A stretch of 64,000 nucleotides of DNA from Parcubacteria group bacterium (GTDB lineage Bacteria; Patescibacteriota; Minisyncoccia; Moranbacterales; GCA-2747515). Location of the stretch: positions 72,535-136,534 of the forward strand of contig JBAZXC010000001.1 of NCBI GenBank assembly GCA_041660065.1, in the 5' to 3' direction. The first letter of the stretch is position 1; the number at the start of each line of letters is the position of its first letter. The notes beneath the pieces were generated by a model. It made no database searches, had not been told where the DNA came from, and was given only the letters and a program-made list of their open reading frames with translations. Below are positions 11,277-41,727 of this stretch, one piece after another. The translations under genes and the position numbers were made by a program.

Positions 11277-11346
11277 GTCATCCTGAACTTGTTTCAGGAT
11301 CTCGCAATTATATCTTGTATAGATGCTGAAACAAGTTCAGCATGAC
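11277..11346 (+). terminator. long inverted repeat / terminator-like hairpin
   Basis: 24-nt arms GTCATCCTGAACTTGTTTCAGGAT / ATGCTGAAACAAGTTCAGCATGAC are near-perfect reverse complements, 22 nt apart. Confidence 0.4.
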
Positions 11347-16228: not shown

Positions 16229-17728
16229 CTAATACACGATCACGCTCACCGGTTGCATCTTGGCGACGACGTGTGCGATGCCGTTTGCTTCGACGCCTTC
16301 GATGACGCGATTGATGTTTTTGTACCGTGCGGAGTCCTGGTTGACGACGATGGATGATTTGGCGTTATAGAGGCGTACGCCTTTTTCTTCCATTTTGGCA
16401 AAGAGCTCTTCTTTGTTGGTGATGGATTTTTCATTGATATTTTTGCCTTTGCCGGTTCCGTGCGGTGCGGAATAAAAACTTTCTGCATTACGGTCTGTGC
16501 CGACGCATATGTACGCATCAGTGCTCATGGACGAAGGGATAAATACCGGCTCGCCTGTGTCACGGTAGACGGGATGGTGTTGCATTTTGCTCGGACCATA
16601 GGCGCGGGATGTATTGTTGCGGTGTACCCATACGTCTTTGTCAAAGTGGTTTTCACGCGTGATCGAAATGTGAGGGAGATCATAGATGAGATCCATCTGT
16701 GGATCACGGTTGAGCGTTTTTTTGATCGTTTGGGAAATATTGTGCGCAATCACGGCACGGTTTGCCGTGCCAAAGTTTGATGCGGCGGCGCGTGCATTCA
16801 TATAAAGCTCGCCGTCAGGTCCACATGCATCATAGGTGAGCAATGATTGGTCGCCGGACATGTGTCGTGCGACTTTCTTTTGCATCTTTCGGTAGATCTC
16901 TTTTTTGGTCGAGTTGAATGTCATGCGACCGAGTGCGACCATGATCGCTTGTGAGAGATGTTCGCGTTTTTTTGCGGTGTGGGTGTACATGGTGTATTGA
17001 CCCAAGATGCCGGAACCCGTATGGATCATAAAAAGATATTGTCCTTTGGCGATGCCGAATTTTTCTGCGATTGTTGGGTCGATGATGTCGGTCACTTTCA
17101 TGAGATCGAGGAAATGATTGCCGGCGGCGCCGAGAATACCGAGGCGATATTGCGCAAAATGTAAATAGAGGCGGGGAATCGCGTCAAAAATATCTTGTGC
17201 CGTCATTTCTCTATCAAAGAAATTCCCGCCACTTTGTGTATTGGACAATTCATTTCGTGTGGTGATGCCAAAGTGATCGATCGCAACCGATGTGCCCTTG
17301 CGGCAGATGTCCACGATCGTATCAAATGGCGCATATGTGCCAACGAGTTTTTTGGTAGGGACTGTCTCAACGAGCTGTTCAAATAGCATCCGTATCTCTT
17401 CCGGTGATATATTGTCTTCGGTAAGAGATGTCTTGAGCAGGCGCATGCCACAGTTTGGGTCGGAGTCATTGACTTGTGGGAGGATATATTTATCCGATAC
17501 GATCGTTGTGCCGGAAGCGTTCTTGCGCCCGGGCTTGGAGCACACATCAGGCAGTGCGACTGTGTAACGGAAGAATATGTCTTTATTTGATGCGATGTTT
17601 TCGACTTGAATAAATGTTTGTTCTTCCGGCAAAATATCTTCGCTCATGAAAAATTGCGCCGGAACGGACATTTTTTCTGTCTTGAATTCGTGTAAATGTT
17701 CGGATTTTTTAGTGCAATGTGTTGACAT
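16229..17728 (-). CDS. rtcB: RtcB-family RNA ligase
   Basis: RtcB-like motifs PDVCSKPG, NCGMRLL, HTGSGILGQ, APHGTGKG; ~500 aa. Confidence 0.7.
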   Translation of the reverse strand: MSTHCTKKSEHLHEFKTEKMSVPAQFFMSEDILPEEQTFIQVENIASNKDIFFRYTVALPDVCSKPGRKNASGTTIVSDKYILPQVNDSDPNCGMRLLKTSLTEDNISPEEIRMLFEQLVETVPTKKLVGTYAPFDTIVDICRKGTSVAIDHFGITTRNELSNTQSGGNFFDREMTAQDIFDAIPRLYLHFAQYRLGILGAAGNHFLDLMKVTDIIDPTIAEKFGIAKGQYLFMIHTGSGILGQYTMYTHTAKKREHLSQAIMVALGRMTFNSTKKEIYRKMQKKVARHMSGDQSLLTYDACGPDGELYMNARAAASNFGTANRAVIAHNISQTIKKTLNRDPQMDLIYDLPHISITRENHFDKDVWVHRNNTSRAYGPSKMQHHPVYRDTGEPVFIPSSMSTDAYICVGTDRNAESFYSAPHGTGKGKNINEKSITNKEELFAKMEEKGVRLYNAKSSIVVNQDSARYKNINRVIEGVEANGIAHVVAKMQPVSVIVY

Positions 17729-20521: not shown

Positions 20522-22504
20522 TTATTGTTTTCTGATGAATAGGCTGAGTTTGTCATTTTGGTAGATGCGGGAGAATTGATCGTTGTGGAGGAACTGTCCG
20601 GCATCTTGTTCTGTGGAGACCAGTACTGCGCCAATGTGGAGGTTGTCATAGCATTGCACTGCCGTGGAGGAGTCCGGTGCGGTGATCATATCCAGTGTGC
20701 ATGTCTCGCGATCCGGATTGGTTTCATAGCGTGCAAGGAGTGCGCGGGAGAGAGGATACGAGTAATCATAGGCGAAAAAGATCTTGAGCCACGTGTCTGC
20801 GGTGATGTAGTTGTGATCTTTGATCATCCAAAAATCGTTTTGGACAAGTTTGCTCTTGAAAACGGTGCTGGCGTATTCACCGGCGTGAAAGGTTTGGAGT
20901 GCATCGTTGGTCTGCGGCGCGTTGTTCATCGATGTCGCGTTGTCGCGCAGTCCTGTGGTGCAGATGAATGTGAGGATGAGCAGGCATGTGGCTGAGAGCA
21001 TCCACTGGGGTACAGCGAGAGAGTCTTTGTTGATCAGTCTGTCAAAAAGCCATGTAACGGCAAAAGCAGTGAGAATTGCGAGAGGAAAAATATTGTACGT
21101 GGCGATACGGCTGGAGATGATATTGATGTAAAGCGTCTGCGGTGCGAGACTCATGAGAAGTATGGATGCTCCCCATCCGATAAAAAAAGCACAACCAAAA
21201 ATATTGATACGCACAGCATCATGTCGCACTTTTGCGCTAAAGAGATATTTCCTGCCAGCAATCGCTGTGAGGAGAAATAATCCGATCACGCCAAAGACGA
21301 AGCGTGCTTCGCCGGTCATGGCAAGTAAGTCTGCGAATGGTGTGCCGGTGCGTGATGACTTGCTCGGTGCACCGACAGAATCAGCAATGACGGAGCTGTC
21401 GAGATATGCGGGTGGTGCGATCACAAAGAGCATCGTTGCGGCAATGATGATGAGGGGAATGATGTAATAGTTTTTGAGAAGTCCAAAGATCTTTGTATAA
21501 TCCGACCAGCGATTTCTTTGCAAAATGATAAAAGTGAGCAAACTAAAGATAAATACATAACCAAAAATGAGTGTGCTCAAGTGATGTGTATACGCAAGTG
21601 CGGTGGTGAGGATCACAGCGGGCACAAGAAGAAGGGCTCTCTTTTCGGTGAAAGCACGATAAAAGAAATAGATGATCGCAGGAATGAGGAGATTGCCGAG
21701 GAGATTGCCGATCACACCGCCACTGACAAATTTTGCCTGCGCTCCGCTGATCGCCCAGAGCGGTCCGATCACGAGGAGGGTGACGATGGCGATCAATGCG
21801 CCACGGGGATGTTTTTTACATACTCTGCGTACGAGGACAAACATCATAAGTGCTGTGAAAATATTGATCACGAGGAGAAACAGTGATGGGAATGTGCTGA
21901 TGACGGATAGATGGGTGAGAATTGCGATCACGCCGAGAAAGATATGCTCGCCGACGATAAAGTCTGCAATTTTATGTGGTGCTGTAAGTTGGGCTGGATC
22001 GGAACTCGTGTCAATCTCGATCTTTTGATAATCAGGCAATGATTTGTCAACGGCAATTTTTTCTACCCAATAGAGATGATGACCGAGGTCGGTCGCTGTG
22101 GGGAAGATCGCATTGATGAGAAAGATCGATTTTATGCAGATCATGAAAAAAATGAGAAACGCGATCACAAAGGTTTGTGTGTGAGAAAATGTGAAGATGT
22201 CGGTGTGTGTCTGTGTCGTTTTTCTGTGTAAAAATAATGATGCAATGAGAAGCGGGACAATGATGCTCGCAAAGAGTGTCAAGAGATGTGCGGGCGTGAG
22301 GGATATGTTGAAATGATCGATGCCGATCACGGACAATGTGATGAGCGCAAAACCGATCGGCACGCTGAGCACGAATTTTTCCAACAATGCGAATTGGTTG
22401 CGTGCAAAGAATGCACGAAGAAAAAGCCATCCCGGCACGATCAGTAATCCAAGTGTTACGCTGATAAACAGGATCTGCTGTACGAAAAAATCATCTATGG
22501 ACAT
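20522..22504 (-). CDS. large polytopic membrane protein (possible GT-C/YfhO-like glycosyl- or polymer-transferase)
   Basis: 660 aa; >12 TM segments in the N-terminal two thirds, then a soluble C-terminal domain. Confidence 0.5.
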   Translation of the reverse strand: MSIDDFFVQQILFISVTLGLLIVPGWLFLRAFFARNQFALLEKFVLSVPIGFALITLSVIGIDHFNISLTPAHLLTLFASIIVPLLIASLFLHRKTTQTHTDIFTFSHTQTFVIAFLIFFMICIKSIFLINAIFPTATDLGHHLYWVEKIAVDKSLPDYQKIEIDTSSDPAQLTAPHKIADFIVGEHIFLGVIAILTHLSVISTFPSLFLLVINIFTALMMFVLVRRVCKKHPRGALIAIVTLLVIGPLWAISGAQAKFVSGGVIGNLLGNLLIPAIIYFFYRAFTEKRALLLVPAVILTTALAYTHHLSTLIFGYVFIFSLLTFIILQRNRWSDYTKIFGLLKNYYIIPLIIIAATMLFVIAPPAYLDSSVIADSVGAPSKSSRTGTPFADLLAMTGEARFVFGVIGLFLLTAIAGRKYLFSAKVRHDAVRINIFGCAFFIGWGASILLMSLAPQTLYINIISSRIATYNIFPLAILTAFAVTWLFDRLINKDSLAVPQWMLSATCLLILTFICTTGLRDNATSMNNAPQTNDALQTFHAGEYASTVFKSKLVQNDFWMIKDHNYITADTWLKIFFAYDYSYPLSRALLARYETNPDRETCTLDMITAPDSSTAVQCYDNLHIGAVLVSTEQDAGQFLHNDQFSRIYQNDKLSLFIRKQ

Positions 22505-22784: not shown

Positions 22785-23594
22785 ATGAAGTTTAACATTG
22801 CTGTTGTACAATTTGAAACCATACGAAAATCTCCAAAAGAAAATTTGCAAAAAGCGGAGCAATTTATAAAAAAAGCAGCATCGTCACATGCAAATATTAT
22901 CGTCTTTCCTGAGAATTTCATCGCTGGATCAATGGAAGAACAATTCAAATATTTCTCCGATTCACGTGAATATTGCACGTATTTTCAACGTCTTGCCAAA
23001 AAATATGCAATTGATATCGTTCCGGGTTCACTTGCCGAAAAAAGCATGTCCAATCTTTATAATACTGCCTATTACATTGACGCAGAGGGAAAGATACGAT
23101 CACGATATCGAAAGATCCACCTTTGGCATCCCGAAAAACCGGTCTTTCGTTCGGGAAAAAAAGTTTTTGTTTTTGATACAAGGTACGGAAAAGTCGGGCT
23201 TATCATTTGTTGGGATCTATTTTTTCCTGAAATGTTCAGGAAAATGTTAAAAATGGGGGTTTCGACCGTTATTTGTCCGAGTTATTGGAGTTATGGAGAT
23301 GCTGGGAAAGGCTTGAAGTATAACAAAAATTCTGAGGCTACACTAATTGATTCGCTTTGTATTGGTAGGGCATTTGAAAATGAAATTATTTTTGTGTATT
23401 GTGGCGCTGTTGGAAAAATAGATACAAATAAAAAACAAGATCTATTGATAGGACATTCTCAGATAACAGTACCATTCAAAGGAGTTTTAAAGAAGTTTGA
23501 CCACAATCGAGAACAGATGTTCGTTCAAGAAGTGGACACTGCTATCCTTGATGATGCTGAACATGTGTATAGGGTTAAGACTGATCTATCTTAA
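22785..23594 (+). CDS. carbon-nitrogen hydrolase (nitrilase superfamily)
   Basis: Catalytic triad context: FPE (Glu), Lys region, IICWD (Cys). Confidence 0.8.
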   Translation: MKFNIAVVQFETIRKSPKENLQKAEQFIKKAASSHANIIVFPENFIAGSMEEQFKYFSDSREYCTYFQRLAKKYAIDIVPGSLAEKSMSNLYNTAYYIDAEGKIRSRYRKIHLWHPEKPVFRSGKKVFVFDTRYGKVGLIICWDLFFPEMFRKMLKMGVSTVICPSYWSYGDAGKGLKYNKNSEATLIDSLCIGRAFENEIIFVYCGAVGKIDTNKKQDLLIGHSQITVPFKGVLKKFDHNREQMFVQEVDTAILDDAEHVYRVKTDLS

Positions 23595-23804: not shown

Positions 23805-24935
23805 TTATAAATTTTTCAGAACATCGAGATATTTTTGGGCGATCTTTTCCCAGCTAAAATGTTCAATGGTATAGAGACGTGCATTTTTGCCAAAAGACTC
23901 TCGATCGAAATCATCTGAGAGAACTTCGATGATCTTTTTAATCCACATCTGCGCATTCTCGTGTTCGATGAGAAAGCCGTTTTTGCCATCGTGGACGGCA
24001 TCTTTGAGTCCTTGAAAATTTGATGCGATGACGACACGTTCGCATGTGGCGGTTTCGACGGCATTGATGCCAAAGCCTTCCATAGATCCCGGGATGTCAA
24101 TATTGGGAGAGATGACGAGATCGACGGTGTTGAAGAGGATGATCTTCTCCGCGTCTGGACGATTGGGGAGGAGAAAGACGCGATCATGGAGGTTGTGCTT
24201 TTCTACCATTTTTTGCGCAAGCGGGAGGACATTGTCATCGCCGGCGGTTGTGTTTGATACAGCGCCACCCATTGCGACAAAGATGATATCTCGCGGGAGA
24301 AATGGCATCACCTGATCCAAAAACCATGCAACGCCTTTGTGTGGCACAAAACGACCCATGCGCAAGATCACTTTTTTGTCTGTGAGGTCGGTATGTAATA
24401 ATTGTGCCAATTCTTCGCGCGTATGGGTGAAGAAATACTCCTGTGGGTCAATGCCGTTTGGGATGAATGTGCATCTGTCTCTGTCGATCTCAAATCGTAC
24501 AGCCTCCGTGATCGTGTGCGTGCCGACGGCGATCAGTTTGTCCATGTGGCGCAATGCGGGGATGTTGACGGTGCGATAGACTTTGCCGAGGAGAGAGTTC
24601 TTTTGCGCATAGGTGATATCAAGTCCGTGCACGATGGAGATAAATTTTTTGTGCGGATAAAATATGTGTGCGATGCGACCGAGCGGGGATAATACACCAT
24701 CGCCAAAAAGCACCGCGTCATGTCGTGGCAGGAGAAAAAGCATTTTGCACAGTGCATACGGCAAAAAGAATGGCAAAAATTTCTTGCCTTTTGTGTTGGC
24801 GAGGATCGTGGTCGGCGTGATATCCTTTAATGCGTGCGCGATGCCGTAGTTTTGATTTTCGATCCCGCCAAATACCGGTGGATACGCGCGTGAGATGAAT
24901 AAGATGCGCAAATCCTTATCGGATAATGTAGACAT
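23805..24935 (-). CDS. glycosyltransferase family 1 (GT4-like)
   Basis: GT-B fold, N-terminal LRILFISRAYPPVFGGIE. Confidence 0.8.
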   Translation of the reverse strand: MSTLSDKDLRILFISRAYPPVFGGIENQNYGIAHALKDITPTTILANTKGKKFLPFFLPYALCKMLFLLPRHDAVLFGDGVLSPLGRIAHIFYPHKKFISIVHGLDITYAQKNSLLGKVYRTVNIPALRHMDKLIAVGTHTITEAVRFEIDRDRCTFIPNGIDPQEYFFTHTREELAQLLHTDLTDKKVILRMGRFVPHKGVAWFLDQVMPFLPRDIIFVAMGGAVSNTTAGDDNVLPLAQKMVEKHNLHDRVFLLPNRPDAEKIILFNTVDLVISPNIDIPGSMEGFGINAVETATCERVVIASNFQGLKDAVHDGKNGFLIEHENAQMWIKKIIEVLSDDFDRESFGKNARLYTIEHFSWEKIAQKYLDVLKNL

Positions 24936-24939
24936 GGTT

Positions 24940-25902
24940 TTATAAAATTACTTTGAAGTTATATTTTTGTTTACGCATACGGTACATGGTTTCCTCTGTG
25001 AGTTGGCGGTTGGTCTTGATCATATCGGCGATGAGTGCAAAAACGAGAAATTGCATTCCGACAAAAAACAGTACGATTGATACGAGGAGATAGTTGCGGT
25101 AGGGTGTGATCTGGAGTTCGGGGAGATAGAGCGCGAGGAATAAGATAAACACGAGCACTGATAAAAGGACGACAAAAAGTCCCGGGATGCCAAAAAACTT
25201 CATCGGACGCACATCGCGTATGGCTTTGATGATGATCTTTGCGCTGTTGTTGACAAAATTCCACACACCTAAAACGACGCGCGATTTGCGACCTTCAAAA
25301 TATTGGACGGTTACGGGGACCCATGTGAGTTTGAGATTTTTGCCGATGGCATCGATGATCGTTTCTTGGGTATAAGTAAAGCCAATCACAGTATTGAGTC
25401 GCAAGAGCGCTTCGCGATTATGTGCGCGGAATCCACACGTGAGATCGTGGATCTCGACATTGAGAAATGCGCCAACAAGCTTTGCGGCGAATTTGTTGAG
25501 AACTTTTTTGATCAGAGGGATACCGTTTGCTTTACCGGCTTTGAATCGATCGCCAATCGTCATGTCTGCATCTCCATCCAGAATTGGTTTGAGCATGGCG
25601 CCGATCTGTTGGGGATCGAACTGACCATCTGCGTCAATGTTGACCATGATGTCAGCGCCGTTCTCCAGTGCACTGCGTACGGCGGAGTTAAATGCAATGC
25701 CGAGACGGCGGTTGGTCTTGTGGACGACAACAATATCTGCGCCGGCTTCTCTGGCGGCATCTGCCGTGCCATCGCGTGATCCGTCATCGACCACTTGGAT
25801 AAGTACCTCGGAAATGCCGTCAAAAGAGCGGGGGATTGCGCGAATCGTTTTGCCAATGGATTTTGCTTCGTTGTATGCCGGCATGTTGATGATCAATTTC
25901 AT
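24940..25902 (-). CDS. glycosyltransferase family 2 (polyprenyl-phosphate sugar synthase, DPM1/GtrB-like) with C-terminal TM helices
   Basis: PAYNE..., VDDGS.D.T motifs; two C-terminal TM helices. Confidence 0.8.
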   Translation of the reverse strand: MKLIINMPAYNEAKSIGKTIRAIPRSFDGISEVLIQVVDDGSRDGTADAAREAGADIVVVHKTNRRLGIAFNSAVRSALENGADIMVNIDADGQFDPQQIGAMLKPILDGDADMTIGDRFKAGKANGIPLIKKVLNKFAAKLVGAFLNVEIHDLTCGFRAHNREALLRLNTVIGFTYTQETIIDAIGKNLKLTWVPVTVQYFEGRKSRVVLGVWNFVNNSAKIIIKAIRDVRPMKFFGIPGLFVVLLSVLVFILFLALYLPELQITPYRNYLLVSIVLFFVGMQFLVFALIADMIKTNRQLTEETMYRMRKQKYNFKVIL

Positions 25903-25989
25903 AATGTTTTATCAGCGTTAGTATTTAGGATAATACATGATATATGTTTCCGTGAGATTTGTCTATATTATACACTATAGGACGTCCTC

Positions 25990-26018
25990 TTGACAAAAAA
26001 ACATTTTTCCCCTATAAT
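25990..26018 (+). promoter_or_regulatory. consensus sigma70-type promoter (TTGACA-17-TATAAT)
   Basis: TTGACA at 25990-25995, a 17-nt spacer, TATAAT at 26013-26018. Confidence 0.6.
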
Positions 26019-26024
26019 CACCTT

Positions 26025-26205
26025 AATATTTAAACCAGTTCCTTAATTGAAAAAGTGTGTGGTGACCGCCTACGGCAACACCTCCATGTCAATGCTTCCC
26101 GCTCGCGATACACCTCCTTTCTCTTCGCGCACAAGACCGTATTTTTATGGTTGCCACACACTTTTTCTTCTTTTGCAGCTTCGATCATTCGAGGCTGTTT
26201 TTTTA
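26025..26205 (+). ncRNA. candidate small structured RNA of unknown class
   Basis: Canonical promoter, then a 19-nt closing stem (26049-26067 pairs with 26149-26167) enclosing ~80 nt, then the terminator CAGCTTCGA-TCAT-TCGAGGCTG + T7 (26176-26204). No convincing ORF. Confidence 0.3.
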
Positions 26206-26346
26206 TGACTTTTTGCCATAATTGTAAAAGTGTGCAAGAATACGCGGTTGAATGTCTGTGTGTGCGGGTGTATAATGATTGCATACAAAAAAACATTCAT
26301 TGATCAATGGAAAGTATATAAATATTTTTGGTAAGGGGCATTATAT

Positions 26347-27501
26347 ATGAATATTGGTATCAACGCATCGTTCATGCGAAAGCCCGGTACGGGCATTGGA
26401 CAGGTGACGACGCATTTTCTTCATGAGCTCATTCGACGGTCACATACTGATCGATCGTTCAAAAATCATAAATTCTTCATCTATAGTGAAGAGCTGATCG
26501 ATATGGATTTCCCCAAGAATTTTACGTGCAGACATTTCTTGCCACATTACTATCGACGGGATGATCTTTTCCGCAGACTGTTGTGGGAGAAATTTTCTTT
26601 ACCGTGCTGTGCGCATCGGGATAAATGTGATGTGCTCATCAGTTTGTATCAGTCGGCGACTGTGATCAAGTACACGGACATGCGTCACATCATGGTGGTA
26701 CATGATGTGATCCCGCATATTTTTGCAGAGTATTTGGACAATATGCGGAAGAAAATTTATTGGAAATATGTTGAAAAAGGGATGTATGGATCACATAAGA
26801 TCATCGCTGTATCCGAGTATACAAAGATCGATCTTGCAACGCGACTCAATATCAAAGAACAAAAGATTACCGTTGCGCCAATTGCTGTGGATCCGATTTT
26901 TAGCAATATCGTGTCACAAGAAGAGATGGATCGTGTGATGGATGTATATAAACTTGAAAGTAAGAAGTACATATATACAGGTGGCGGTTTGGAGTTGCGC
27001 AAATGTGCGGATCGTACATTGCGTGCATACAAGATGTTGCGTGAACGGATACCTGATGCGCCGACCCTTGTCATTTCAGGAAAACTGATGCCGGAGCTTG
27101 CCCCGCTTATTGTTGATGTGGAACAAATCGTTTATGATCTGGGACTTGTGGATCACGTGCGCATCATCGGATTTGTACCGCAGGCAGATCTGCCGGCACT
27201 TTATAAAGGCGCAGTTTGTTTTGTCTTTCCGTCATTGTACGAAGGTTTTGGCATGCCGGTACTGGAGGCAATGAATATTGGCACACCGGTGATCACGTCA
27301 AGGGATTCCAGTTTGTCGGAAGTTGGTGGTGATGCGGTTGTGTATGCCGAGCATGATGATGAAGCGTTGTGTGAAAAAATGCGCGAGGTGATCCTCGATC
27401 ACACATTACAAGAAATGATCAGTGCAAAAGAAAAAGAACAAGCACAAAAATTTTCTTGGCAATCTTTTGTTGAAAAGATTTGGGAAACGGTTACAATGTA
27501 G
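26347..27501 (+). CDS. glycosyltransferase family 1 (GT4-like)
   Basis: GT-B fold; C-terminal FVFPSLYEGFGMPVLEAM motif. Confidence 0.75.
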   Translation: MNIGINASFMRKPGTGIGQVTTHFLHELIRRSHTDRSFKNHKFFIYSEELIDMDFPKNFTCRHFLPHYYRRDDLFRRLLWEKFSLPCCAHRDKCDVLISLYQSATVIKYTDMRHIMVVHDVIPHIFAEYLDNMRKKIYWKYVEKGMYGSHKIIAVSEYTKIDLATRLNIKEQKITVAPIAVDPIFSNIVSQEEMDRVMDVYKLESKKYIYTGGGLELRKCADRTLRAYKMLRERIPDAPTLVISGKLMPELAPLIVDVEQIVYDLGLVDHVRIIGFVPQADLPALYKGAVCFVFPSLYEGFGMPVLEAMNIGTPVITSRDSSLSEVGGDAVVYAEHDDEALCEKMREVILDHTLQEMISAKEKEQAQKFSWQSFVEKIWETVTM

Positions 27502-27503
27502 AT

Positions 27504-29054
27504 ATGAAAAGTCTTTTGGAGAATACGAAGATACTTGCTGTGGTCACTGCACTTTTTGGTGTGTGTATGATCATGATTGGTCGTGCGGATTTTTTTGCCT
27601 CGATGCCACTTTTTGTTGTGGGTGGCGTTTTTTGCGTTGCAGTCGGCATTGCTATTTTTCGTCCGGCATTTGGCTTTGCGTTGTTTATTTCTGCATTGCC
27701 TTTTGAGATCATAAGCGTCTTGCCCGAGAATGTCGGATTGTCTGTCCGTCCGTATCAACTATTGGGTGTGGCATTGTGCTGTGCGATCCTGTGGATCTAT
27801 GTGCGCAGAGATGTGACTATTACGGATGTGCGAGCATCCATTATGGATTTTTTGGTCGGTATTTTTCTTTTAGTGAGTTTTATGACTGTGCGATGGGCTG
27901 TCGATCCGTCGCTGGCATTGCAACAGACGATCATTCTTGCGTCTTTTGTTGTGTTGTATTTTGTGTCGCGATTTTTCGTCACGGATGTGCATCGAGTGAT
28001 TGCGGTCTTGCCGATCATTGTTGTAAGCGGAGGTGTAATGAGTGTCTATGCGATCGTACAAAATATTCTTTTTTTGCAAGGAGGCGATCATCAAGAATTT
28101 ATGCCGGGACGTCCAAATGCGTTTTTTGCGGAGCCGGATTGGCTGGGAGTATATTTCGTCTTTGTCTTTGCGGCATGCATTGCATACCTTTATTACAACG
28201 CGCATCACAAACATGTGTGGCGGTTTTTCGATGTGTCTTTGTGGAGCGTAACGACTACAGTTGCGGTTGCGATGATCCTGACGGTTGCGCGGAGTGCATG
28301 GGTGGGCGTTGCGTCTGTGAGTGCTGTATATTTGCTCGTTGTTTTTCTCTCGCGGAAGTATAAAATGTTTGCACGGCATGCTCTGTGGCTTGGGAGTGTC
28401 GCGGTTGTCAGCATGGGGGTCGTGCTGTATGCACCTGTGACGAATTTTGAATTGGACAATCGTATCCAAAGCACAACTACGGGATTGCAAGAAATTACCG
28501 TGTCATGCACACAAGAGAGTGCGGGTGCACAACTCAGTGCACAAAAAGAAATTGATGATGTTGCGGAACTTTCTGCATATGGCTGTCGTCATATTGATCT
28601 CGAAGAAATTGAGAAGGAAAAAATGACGGGGCATACGGTTGTAAAGGTTTTGCGCAATGATCCCAATGTCGCTGTGCGTGCAAAGACTTATGATCATGTG
28701 ATCCAGCTTGTCCGTGCGCGTCCGTTTACCGGTTATGGGTGGGGGAGCAGCGGTGATTTGCTTGGCAATGATGAACAGGGCACACCACTCAATGCGAGTA
28801 ATATCTTTTTGGAGACGGCGTTGTCGATCGGTGTGATCGGTCTGGGAGTGTTGGTATTGTTTTTTGGTGCAATTGGTGTCCGTGCGCTTCATGTGATGTA
28901 TTGCGCGCATGATGAAGTGACGCGGAGCGTGGCTGTGTTTAGCGTGATCGGACTTGTGGCGATCATCGTACCAAATCTTTTTAATGCGGGATTGTTTTTG
29001 GGTTTTGTGTGGGTGTATTTTGCACTGGTTGCACCTTTGTTCAAAAAGATATAA
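27504..29054 (+). CDS. O-antigen ligase/polymerase-like membrane protein (Wzy_C family)
   Basis: ~12 TM helices with a large periplasmic loop; start taken as the ATG right after the upstream stop (the ORF-track start 27480 overlaps the previous gene). Confidence 0.55.
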   Translation: MKSLLENTKILAVVTALFGVCMIMIGRADFFASMPLFVVGGVFCVAVGIAIFRPAFGFALFISALPFEIISVLPENVGLSVRPYQLLGVALCCAILWIYVRRDVTITDVRASIMDFLVGIFLLVSFMTVRWAVDPSLALQQTIILASFVVLYFVSRFFVTDVHRVIAVLPIIVVSGGVMSVYAIVQNILFLQGGDHQEFMPGRPNAFFAEPDWLGVYFVFVFAACIAYLYYNAHHKHVWRFFDVSLWSVTTTVAVAMILTVARSAWVGVASVSAVYLLVVFLSRKYKMFARHALWLGSVAVVSMGVVLYAPVTNFELDNRIQSTTTGLQEITVSCTQESAGAQLSAQKEIDDVAELSAYGCRHIDLEEIEKEKMTGHTVVKVLRNDPNVAVRAKTYDHVIQLVRARPFTGYGWGSSGDLLGNDEQGTPLNASNIFLETALSIGVIGLGVLVLFFGAIGVRALHVMYCAHDEVTRSVAVFSVIGLVAIIVPNLFNAGLFLGFVWVYFALVAPLFKKI

Positions 29055-41625: not shown

Positions 41626-41694
41626 TTTAGCTTTTTTTAACATGTTGACACAAGCATTAATCTTTTTGGAAGGTGAAAAAACTCTTAAAATGCA

Positions 41695-41727
41695 CAAAAC
41701 CTCCGGATCGCTGCCGGAGGTTTTGTG
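41695..41727. terminator. bidirectional terminator hairpin
   Basis: AAACCTCCGG-ATCGCTG-CCGGAGGTTTT, T/A-rich on both sides. Confidence 0.5.

Follow-up and report, generated by a model that had tools for sequence, protein, structure and literature searches.

A putative lineage-restricted small RNA gene with a covarying closing helix, flanked by two sugar-transferase genes in an uncultured Parcubacteria bacterium

The stretch of DNA considered here, 64,000 nt of contig JBAZXC010000001.1 from an uncultured Parcubacteria bacterium of the Candidate Phyla Radiation (CPR), will be called the window, and coordinates given without a locus name are positions within it. Between two of its sugar-transferase genes, GT2 and GT1, lies an intergenic unit of ~180 nt, extending from a consensus promoter to an intrinsic terminator, which very probably constitutes a functional non-coding RNA (ncRNA) gene, as judged from its sequence and from those of its relatives. 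The protein relatives of GT1 carry the database names Moranbacteria/Moraniibacteriota and Patescibacteria.

Anatomy of the promoter-to-terminator unit

The unit and the two genes that flank it comprise the following features.

24940-25902, minus strand: GT2, the other flank of the RNA unit
25990-26018, plus strand: sigma-70-type promoter of the RNA gene, with TTGACA (25990-25995), a 17-nt A-rich spacer and TATAAT (26013-26018)
26025-26048, plus strand: 5' leader, its start (~26025) inferred from the position of the -10 element
26049-26067, plus strand: 5' arm of the closing helix P1, GAAAAAGTGTGTGGTGACC, 19 nt
26071-26075, plus strand: 5' strand of a candidate inner helix, UACGG, pairing with CCGUA
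26076-26089, plus strand: motif 1, CAACACCUCCAUGU, of the pattern A(A/C)(A)CCUCC and then A/U..UGU
26091-26134, plus strand: variable, pyrimidine-rich interior, including the hairpin CGCGA/UCGCG
26137-26141, plus strand: 3' strand of the candidate inner helix, CCGUA, inside the conserved segment CCGUAUUUUUAU (26135-26148)
26149-26167, plus strand: 3' arm of the closing helix P1, GGTTGCCACACACTTTTTC, 19 nt
26175-26204, plus strand: intrinsic terminator, a 10-bp hairpin closing on a 4-nt loop (26175-26198), then a T7 (U7) run to 26204
26347-27501, plus strand: GT1, downstream of the RNA unit and in the same orientation

The RNA promoter scores 12/12 and is the sole perfect match in a promoter scan of 24900-27500. 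The arms of P1 form 17 Watson-Crick and 2 G.U pairs and enclose 81 nt, and the arm sequence, at no more than 3 mismatches, finds itself and its partner alone in the 64 kb, with 0.04 chance matches expected. Between the arms, the hairpin of CGCGA (26104-26108) with UCGCG (26125-26129) carries in its loop a second ACACCUCC (26110-26117) within GAUACACCUCCUUUCU. An earlier note on this DNA, made from its letters, had described the TTGACA-17-TATAAT promoter, the 19-nt arms pairing with two G.U pairs around ~80 nt, smaller inverted repeats between them and a rho-independent terminator with T7, and each of these was recovered as it had been described.

The 186-nt stretch folds at -55.2 kcal/mol versus -32.4 +/- 3.9 kcal/mol for its dinucleotide shuffles (z = -5.9, with 0/200 as good), and its minus strand reaches z = -3.5. 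Across the lineages that carry the unit (see below) the plus strand gives z from -5.3 to -6.2 versus -4.3 to -4.7 on the minus strand. The folds in all four lineages consist of P1, a one-sided or small internal loop, a short helix and then an unstructured interior of 40-60 nt, and the paired-end core amounts to 97-120 nt. P1, which ends at 26167, and the terminator, which begins at 26175, coexist in every minimum-energy fold, being separated by a linker of 7-10 nt without overlap. The described architecture is real and well above chance.

Distribution, covariation and constraint among relatives

Relatives were gathered via the contigs of GT1 homologues and a 93%-identical cluster member, P0122 (locus L216). 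The cassette was found directly upstream of an orthologous GT1 in four Parcubacteria/Moranbacteria-like lineages, namely the window, L216 (GT1 93% identical to that of the window), L004 (83%) and L005/L006/L007 (79-80%), and was missing in L088-L095, where GT1 is 65-72% identical; among the loci examined, it is thus confined to the clade whose GT1 is at least 79% identical to that of the window. The intergenic region of L088, L090 and L094 opens with a sequence (TTTTGCCAT...ACAAAAGTRTG...) that in the window comes after the terminator, and the cassette thus appears to have been gained or lost as a complete promoter-to-terminator unit in one narrow clade. The gene on its far side is GT2 in the window and L216 and an unrelated one in L004 and L005, while GT1 is constant; therefore, the cassette travels with GT1. 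The TTGACA-17-TATAAT promoter is present in 4/4 lineages (scored 12/12 in the window, L004 and L005, with the same hexamers and spacing seen by eye in L216), and so is the terminator hairpin, which was scored in L004 and takes the form of an interrupted stem with T7 in L005.

Wider searches added no further carriers: a scan of genome contigs with GT1 returned one unrelated archaeal locus only, a scan of metagenome contigs with a GT1 alignment gave, among the matches listed, generic GT4 patterns and homologues at most 46% identical, and truncated close relatives sought with the first 100 residues of GT1 yielded no candidates. A core covariance model, R1, which reaches 84.8 bits at the unit, does not exceed 14 bits anywhere else in the window, and fits among 91 other loci those of L004-L007 only; a motif scan of viral contigs produced more than 120 chance matches, and R1 fitted 0 of the 80 listed loci that were screened.

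Two of the lineages carry repeats beside the cassette. L216 holds, between the RNA terminator and the GT1 promoters, a 136-nt insertion relative to the window (L216 1227-1362), which contains the inverted repeat GGTCATTGCG...CGCAATAATGAC and a 14-codon mini-open reading frame (ORF) preceded by a strong GAGGAGG, and which looks like a small mobile palindromic element. In L004, the RNA promoter is closely preceded by inverted repeats (1740-1960; CATTGCGAGGGAATGAAATGACCGAAGCAATC and GATTGCTTCGTCGCTTTGCTCCTCGCAAAG) that resemble repetitive extragenic palindromes (REP) and are of the same kind as in the L216 insertion.

The closing helix was followed in the P1-to-P1 alignment A7, which holds four distinct sequences, all of one narrow clade. 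In it 89% of the cells form standard pairs and both-sided changes occur in 8/19 pairs, figures that are counts and not probabilities. When the 3' partner was slid by 1-3 columns, pairing fell to 35-53%, and 0/500 column shuffles reached the observed pairing, the both-sided changes or the covariation score; a three-sequence P1 alignment gives the same picture. RNAalifold independently finds P1 and the terminator hairpin, with compensatory changes in 14/25 pairs. The window and L216 differ by a recent compensatory swap, from U.A to C.G, at P1 pair 8. Given the slid controls and this independent recent swap, a selected helix is the only reasonable reading of P1. Conservation or covariation of the stem in homologous intergenic regions had been named beforehand as a test of the prediction, and the compensatory changes in the relatives bear the prediction out. 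P1 contains 6 G.U cells and 0 A.C cells, and this, together with the fold bias, the promoter and the U-run, points therefore to the plus strand as the RNA strand.

Inside P1 the lineages are less alike. In L004 and L005 a hairpin P0 (GCUA...UAGC) stands in place of the leader, both in single-sequence folds and in the RNAalifold consensus, and RNAalifold with these two loci also finds an inner helix, GAGCGG/CCGCUC, at the place equivalent to the candidate inner helix of the window, while in L216 UACGGCAA/UUGCCGUA can form. The homology of these inner helices across lineages is uncertain, since the internal loop next to them has a different geometry.

As a neutral yardstick, the 4-fold degenerate sites of the window and L216 were used, which differ by 23% in GT1 and 34% in GT2 and so correspond to 66-77% identity. 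Against it, the parts of the unit show the following identities to L216.

RNA promoter: 97%
Linker and terminator: 95%
Segment CCGUAUUUUUAU, 26135-26148: 93%
P1 arms: 84-85%, with compensation
Segment 26068-26090, holding motif 1: 83%
5' leader: 67%, with a 5-nt indel, at the neutral level
Interior, 26091-26134: 57%, at or below neutral identity

By this measure, the leader and the greater part of the interior are unconstrained. The sole interior sequence common to 4/4 lineages is motif 1, in the versions CAACACCUCCAUGU (window), CAAAAACCUCCAUGU (L216), CAACCAACCUCCUAUAUGU (L004) and GUCCAACCUCCACUGU (L005), and it is predicted to be unpaired in the window (mean probability 0.81), in L004 (0.87) and in the minimum-energy fold of L216, but paired in L005 (0.12). 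These comparisons firmly indicate that the promoter, the end-clamping helix, one short motif and the terminator are under selection.

A possible base-pairing function and its alternatives

The alignments strongly support a self-contained ncRNA gene of ~170-180 nt that runs from a sigma-70 promoter of consensus type to an intrinsic terminator. They equally support the maintenance by selection of P1 (15-19 bp), within which lie 67-82 nt of pyrimidine-rich sequence that for the most part evolves freely. The core of the earlier note, which had taken the unit for a self-contained, non-coding, structured small RNA (sRNA), is supported by the conserved, covarying stem and by the lack of any conserved frame.

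The explanation preferred here, to which as a whole a probability of about 0.4 may be assigned, is that this ncRNA gene encodes a base-pairing riboregulator working through its CCUCC segment; the mechanism taken by itself is tentative and rather doubtful. The RNA would act in trans, with motif 1 proposed as its functional (seed) segment: the CCUCC, predicted to be single-stranded in 3/4 lineages, would pair with purine-rich sequences of the GGAGG(U) type, and such pairing at ribosome-binding sites would block initiation or trigger cleavage, while P1 could act as a clamp resistant to nucleases or as a site at which RNase III processes the RNA. The mode of action would be analogous to that of the RsaE/RoxS, LhrC and RNAIII-type RNAs. 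Shine-Dalgarno (SD)-like sequences (GGAG, GAGG, AGGA or GGGG at -20 to -5) precede 7/41 ATG-initiated ORFs of at least 150 aa in the window, versus 8.6% of random 16-mers, and the upstream regions of the window genes contain 46% A and 11% G; clear SD-like exceptions are GT1 (26347) and the genes at 22785, 60319 and 61057, the last two without a Pfam match. The anti-SD motif is present in just 48% of Parcubacteria 16S genes (PMC9297842). As the host genome hardly uses SD sequences, a CCUCC seed would have few possible partners and could therefore be specific.

Several points speak against this explanation. No convincing mRNA target was found in the GT1 leader or the initiation regions of the window: pairing with the GT1 leader is not significant, P being 0.64, 0.41 and 0.06 for the three genomes tested, and among 43 initiation regions the sole notable match, at -15.2 kcal/mol for gene 61057, involves the second loop, which is not conserved. 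The minimum-energy fold of L005 pairs the CCUCC with an internal GGAG, leaving it an unpaired probability of 0.12, and a motif of 6-7 nt is a thin basis for naming a seed. The evidence for P1 comes from four lineages of one narrow clade and is subject to phylogenetic dependence. Lastly, the cassette is missing from close relatives and is therefore dispensable.

A complement of 14-16 bp to the motif 1 region (GCAUUGAUAUGGAG with CUCCAUGUCAAUGC) was seen at 2822-2837 on the plus strand, inside a MazG-like ORF (2569-2874); as a target it was set aside, since it falls in a coding region and, with a rough chance probability of ~0.05, is probably accidental.

Among the known systems, the closest are sRNAs that bind at initiation regions. 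The C-rich motifs of RsaE/RoxS bind mRNAs at G-rich or SD regions, forming duplexes that become sites for RNase III (PMC6158497). The unit resembles RsaE/RoxS in being a stand-alone non-coding gene that has a promoter and an intrinsic terminator of its own, and in a short C-rich motif, predicted to be unpaired in 3/4 lineages and duplicated in the window copy, but it has no sequence or covariance similarity to them, its motif is ACCUCC rather than CCCC, RsaE/RoxS possess no 19-bp end-clamping helix, and the host here is a CPR bacterium hardly using SD sequences. In LhrC of Listeria monocytogenes, which responds to envelope stress, redundant CU-rich sites pair with the ribosome-binding region of the mRNA for a cell-envelope protein, independently of Hfq (PMC4132741). 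Like LhrC, the RNA has a CU-rich interior and is associated with the envelope, in that it lies in an envelope-glycan gene cluster; it is, however, single-copy and of unrelated sequence, with one conserved copy of the motif. The csRNAs of Streptococcus, which are controlled by CiaRH, carry anti-SD and anti-start-codon sequences. They share with the present unit a small, terminator-ended RNA that displays the anti-SD core CCUCC, whereas the unit has no CAU upstream of CCUCC at the SD-AUG spacing, no Rfam match and another fold. The window, L004 and L005 gave no Rfam match to the RsaE, LhrC or csRNA families.

The main rival, though an unlikely one, is a protein-binding RNA (sponge, decoy or scaffold), in which P1 would clamp the ends while the ACCUCC interior titrates a protein, for example a factor recognising the ...ACCUCC 3' tail of 16S rRNA (an Era-type KH domain, bS21 or a maturation nuclease). 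Stable protein-bound RNAs typically have long terminal helices, and the unit has such a helix around a G-poor, largely unstructured interior, with no mRNA target found. In a genome that barely uses SD sequences, the window loop GAUACACCUCCUUUCU matches the Bacillus-type 16S 3' end at 15/16 positions (P<0.001, shuffling), a result significant for the window alone. This likeness, however, is not kept, as the second ACACCUCC does not occur in L216, L004 or L005; L216 has CUCUCUUUCUCUCUCC there, and L004 and L005 have only ACCUCC(U) in common with the 16S tail (P = 0.29-0.71, one borderline at 0.04). Given that the second copy belongs to the unconstrained part and that these three loci lack it, its 16S-tail likeness is probably accidental, and a conserved 16S 3'-tail mimicry was dropped. 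Also, no candidate protein partner for the RNA is encoded beside the cassette. A further proposal is that the RNA is a free-standing anti-SD (ACCUCC) carrier in a near-SD-less lineage, either a dedicated repressor of the few GGAGG-bearing mRNAs or a 16S-tail decoy titrating a tail-binding factor, and that it couples envelope-glycan expression to initiation control; we consider this a long shot.

It is less probable still than the protein-binding alternative, but worth weighing, that the unit is a cis-acting 5' leader of the GT1-Wzy operon fed from the strong upstream promoter by terminator read-through, for example a protein- or RNA-controlled attenuator or a processive-antitermination element (EAR, a LoaP leader, or analogues of ops/JUMPStart). 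The cassette always directly precedes GT1 and shares its orientation, irrespective of the gene on the other side, the long operon codes for envelope-glycan enzymes, and a 13-nt sequence is common to the RNA promoter spacer and the GT1 leader. However, P1 and the terminator do not overlap, the linker between them leaving no antiterminator/terminator switch evident, and the terminator is strong and conserved. L216 tolerates its insertion between the terminator and GT1, and the interior lacks the conservation expected of an aptamer or of an element that binds RNA polymerase (57%, where the GT1 proteins retain 93%). No Rfam EAR or riboswitch match was found, and the RfaH ops element was rejected, the partial GTAGCG likeness being confined to the P1 5' arm of L004 and L005 and absent in the window and L216.

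Against the leader stand also the promoters of GT1 itself, which are downstream of the terminator: TTGCCA-17-AAGAAT (26213-26241), which carries a TG, and TTGAAT-17-TATAAT (26248-26276), which has none. Both, as TTGCCA-17-TGnAAnAAT and TTGART-16/17-TATAMT, are kept in all cassette-bearing lineages, and the TTGCCA element also occurs in the cassette-less L088 and L094, with TTGCTA in its place in L090. The earlier note had argued from an extended -10, TGTATAAT at ~26268, that GT1 has its own promoter and that the unit is not simply its leader; the own promoter holds, twice over, and so does the argument, since GT1 keeps its promoters also where the cassette is missing, but that element is not a canonical extended -10, its TG being one base too close. 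As distant relatives lack the cassette and yet keep the GT1 promoters, the cassette would therefore be a young, independent sRNA gene and not a GT1 leader.

Some further observations concern the promoter and leader region of GT1. Its 5' leader (26283-26346; ACAUUCAU..AUGGAAAGUAU..AAUAUUUUUGRUAAGGGGCAUU) is strongly conserved in the window, L004, L005, L216, L088 and L090, and the G-rich ribosome-binding site in it, unusual for an SD-poor genome, is kept in all orthologues seen; this leader may itself have a regulatory role. The 13-nt repeat, ACAAAAAAACATT, is exact, at 25993-26005 in the RNA promoter spacer and at 26285-26297 just downstream of the GT1 -10, with the equivalents TGACAAAAAAACATTC and TGACAGAAACATTC in L004 and ACGATTC and ACGTTC in L005, and it may be an operator through which the RNA and GT1 are regulated together. 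A direct repeat joins 26041-26059 (CCTTAATTGAAAAAGTGTG) with 26216-26234 (CCATAATTGTAAAAGTGTG), the downstream copy being found also in L216 (GTAAAAGTGTG), with no likeness in L004 and L005. The P1 5' arm thus resembles the ancestral GT1 promoter spacer, and the P1 3' arm (26157-26165) could therefore also pair with 26226-26234.

That the unit is a non-functional remnant, a decaying palindromic insertion of the miniature inverted-repeat transposable element (MITE) or REP-like kind with chance promoter- and terminator-like sequences, is very improbable. The narrow distribution, with absence from near relatives at the same locus, the largely unconstrained interior and the REP-like inverted repeats that adjoin the cassette in L004 and L216 would suit such an origin. 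But the unit is single-copy in the 64-kb window, where R1 finds it alone, and in all fetched loci, which argues against a MITE; the arms change by compensation and not by decay, the promoter (97%) and terminator (95%) exceed the neutral 66-77%, and without selection four diverged lineages would not be expected to share a perfect 12/12 promoter. Two further candidates were set aside from the sequence: a retron msr/msd, as there is no adjacent reverse transcriptase gene and no long msd hairpin, and an integron attC, as there is no GTTRRRY core.

A small protein gene on either strand, whether the 82-codon ORF on the plus strand or a 52-aa ORF on the minus strand, is hardly credible, although frames are open on both strands and one was called by a gene caller. 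The 82-codon ORF (26055-26303), translation of which the earlier note had named as the counter-case to an RNA, starts with GTG, has no purine-rich SD-like sequence or other ribosome-binding signal upstream and, as the plus-strand ORFs do, crosses the terminator. Neither it nor any other frame is conserved, the frames, starts and peptides differing among the window, L004 and L005 and the conserved CAACCUCC motif falling in different frames among the lineages, and the substitutions are compensatory in the helix and not codon-periodic, so the non-coding reading stands. The public gene calls across the RNA gene (52 aa at 26030-26188 and, in L004, 65 aa at 2120-2317, both on the minus strand) have neither frame nor sequence in common and look spurious.

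That the unit is a divergent 6S RNA or some other housekeeping RNA (signal recognition particle (SRP) RNA or Y RNA-like) is just as hard to credit. Its appeal, and that of the 6S-like suggestion in the earlier note, lies in the predicted primary transcript of ~180 nt and the long closing helix, which 6S RNA shares. But the two-sided, open-promoter-like central bubble and the long terminal stem of 6S RNA are lacking, the core of 97-120 nt is shorter, and the cassette belongs to one narrow clade and is missing already in slightly more distant relatives. The Infernal/Rfam scan for 6S, SRP and other sRNAs that had been advised gave no known family, so that the class stays unassigned in Rfam: Rfam 15 at gathering thresholds returned 0 matches in the whole window; at E<=10 the region 25900-26360 and the units of L004 and L005 gave noise far under the threshold (ncr982, RsaF, one microRNA and one snoRNA) and no 6S, SRP or YrlA match. 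ARAGORN called 0 genes. SRP RNA, RNase P RNA, tRNA, tmRNA and Y RNA-like candidates were rejected for want of an Rfam or ARAGORN match, and no Ro/TROVE gene is nearby.

Genomic neighbourhood and significance

The unit lies in a neighbourhood whose encoded functions, as predicted from the genes, are those of envelope glycan and cell wall; besides the flanking GT1 and GT2 and the two genes listed below, it encodes another GT1 and a LytR-CpsA-Psr protein, with Mur/Ddl ligases farther off.

23805-24935, minus strand: a further GT1 gene, part of the envelope-glycan neighbourhood
27480-29054: Wzy-like protein, beyond the downstream GT1 in the long GT1-Wzy glycan operon

No reverse transcriptase, Ro/TROVE or CRISPR-type gene adjoins the RNA unit. 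A gene for an RtcB RNA ligase lies at 16229-17728 on the minus strand, 8 kb from the RNA, and no Ro/Y-RNA partner was seen for it; a 660-aa ORF without a Pfam match occupies 20522-22504, also on the minus strand. Elsewhere in the window, near-perfect palindromic hairpins at 11283-11340 and 41693-41727, the latter (AAACCTCC...GGAGGTTT) between convergent genes, were matched by a covariance model on both strands and look like bidirectional terminators.

As a kind of object, the unit is an ordinary orphan bacterial sRNA: young, lineage-restricted and dispensable. Most likely it represents a new sRNA gene that is not in Rfam and is restricted to one CPR lineage. The CPR bacteria, or Patescibacteria, are uncultured and have tiny genomes, and to our knowledge they mostly lack known RNA chaperones. 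A full-text literature search turned up no described regulatory sRNA in this group. The locus accordingly offers a concrete comparative-genomics candidate, with a defined promoter, ends, helix and one conserved segment, that could be sought in groundwater metatranscriptomes and could seed a covariance model. Its CCUCC segment is of interest because the host scarcely uses SD sequences, so that the RNA could single out few mRNAs, and this combination of the host group with an anti-SD-like motif in an SD-poor genome makes the finding moderately interesting.

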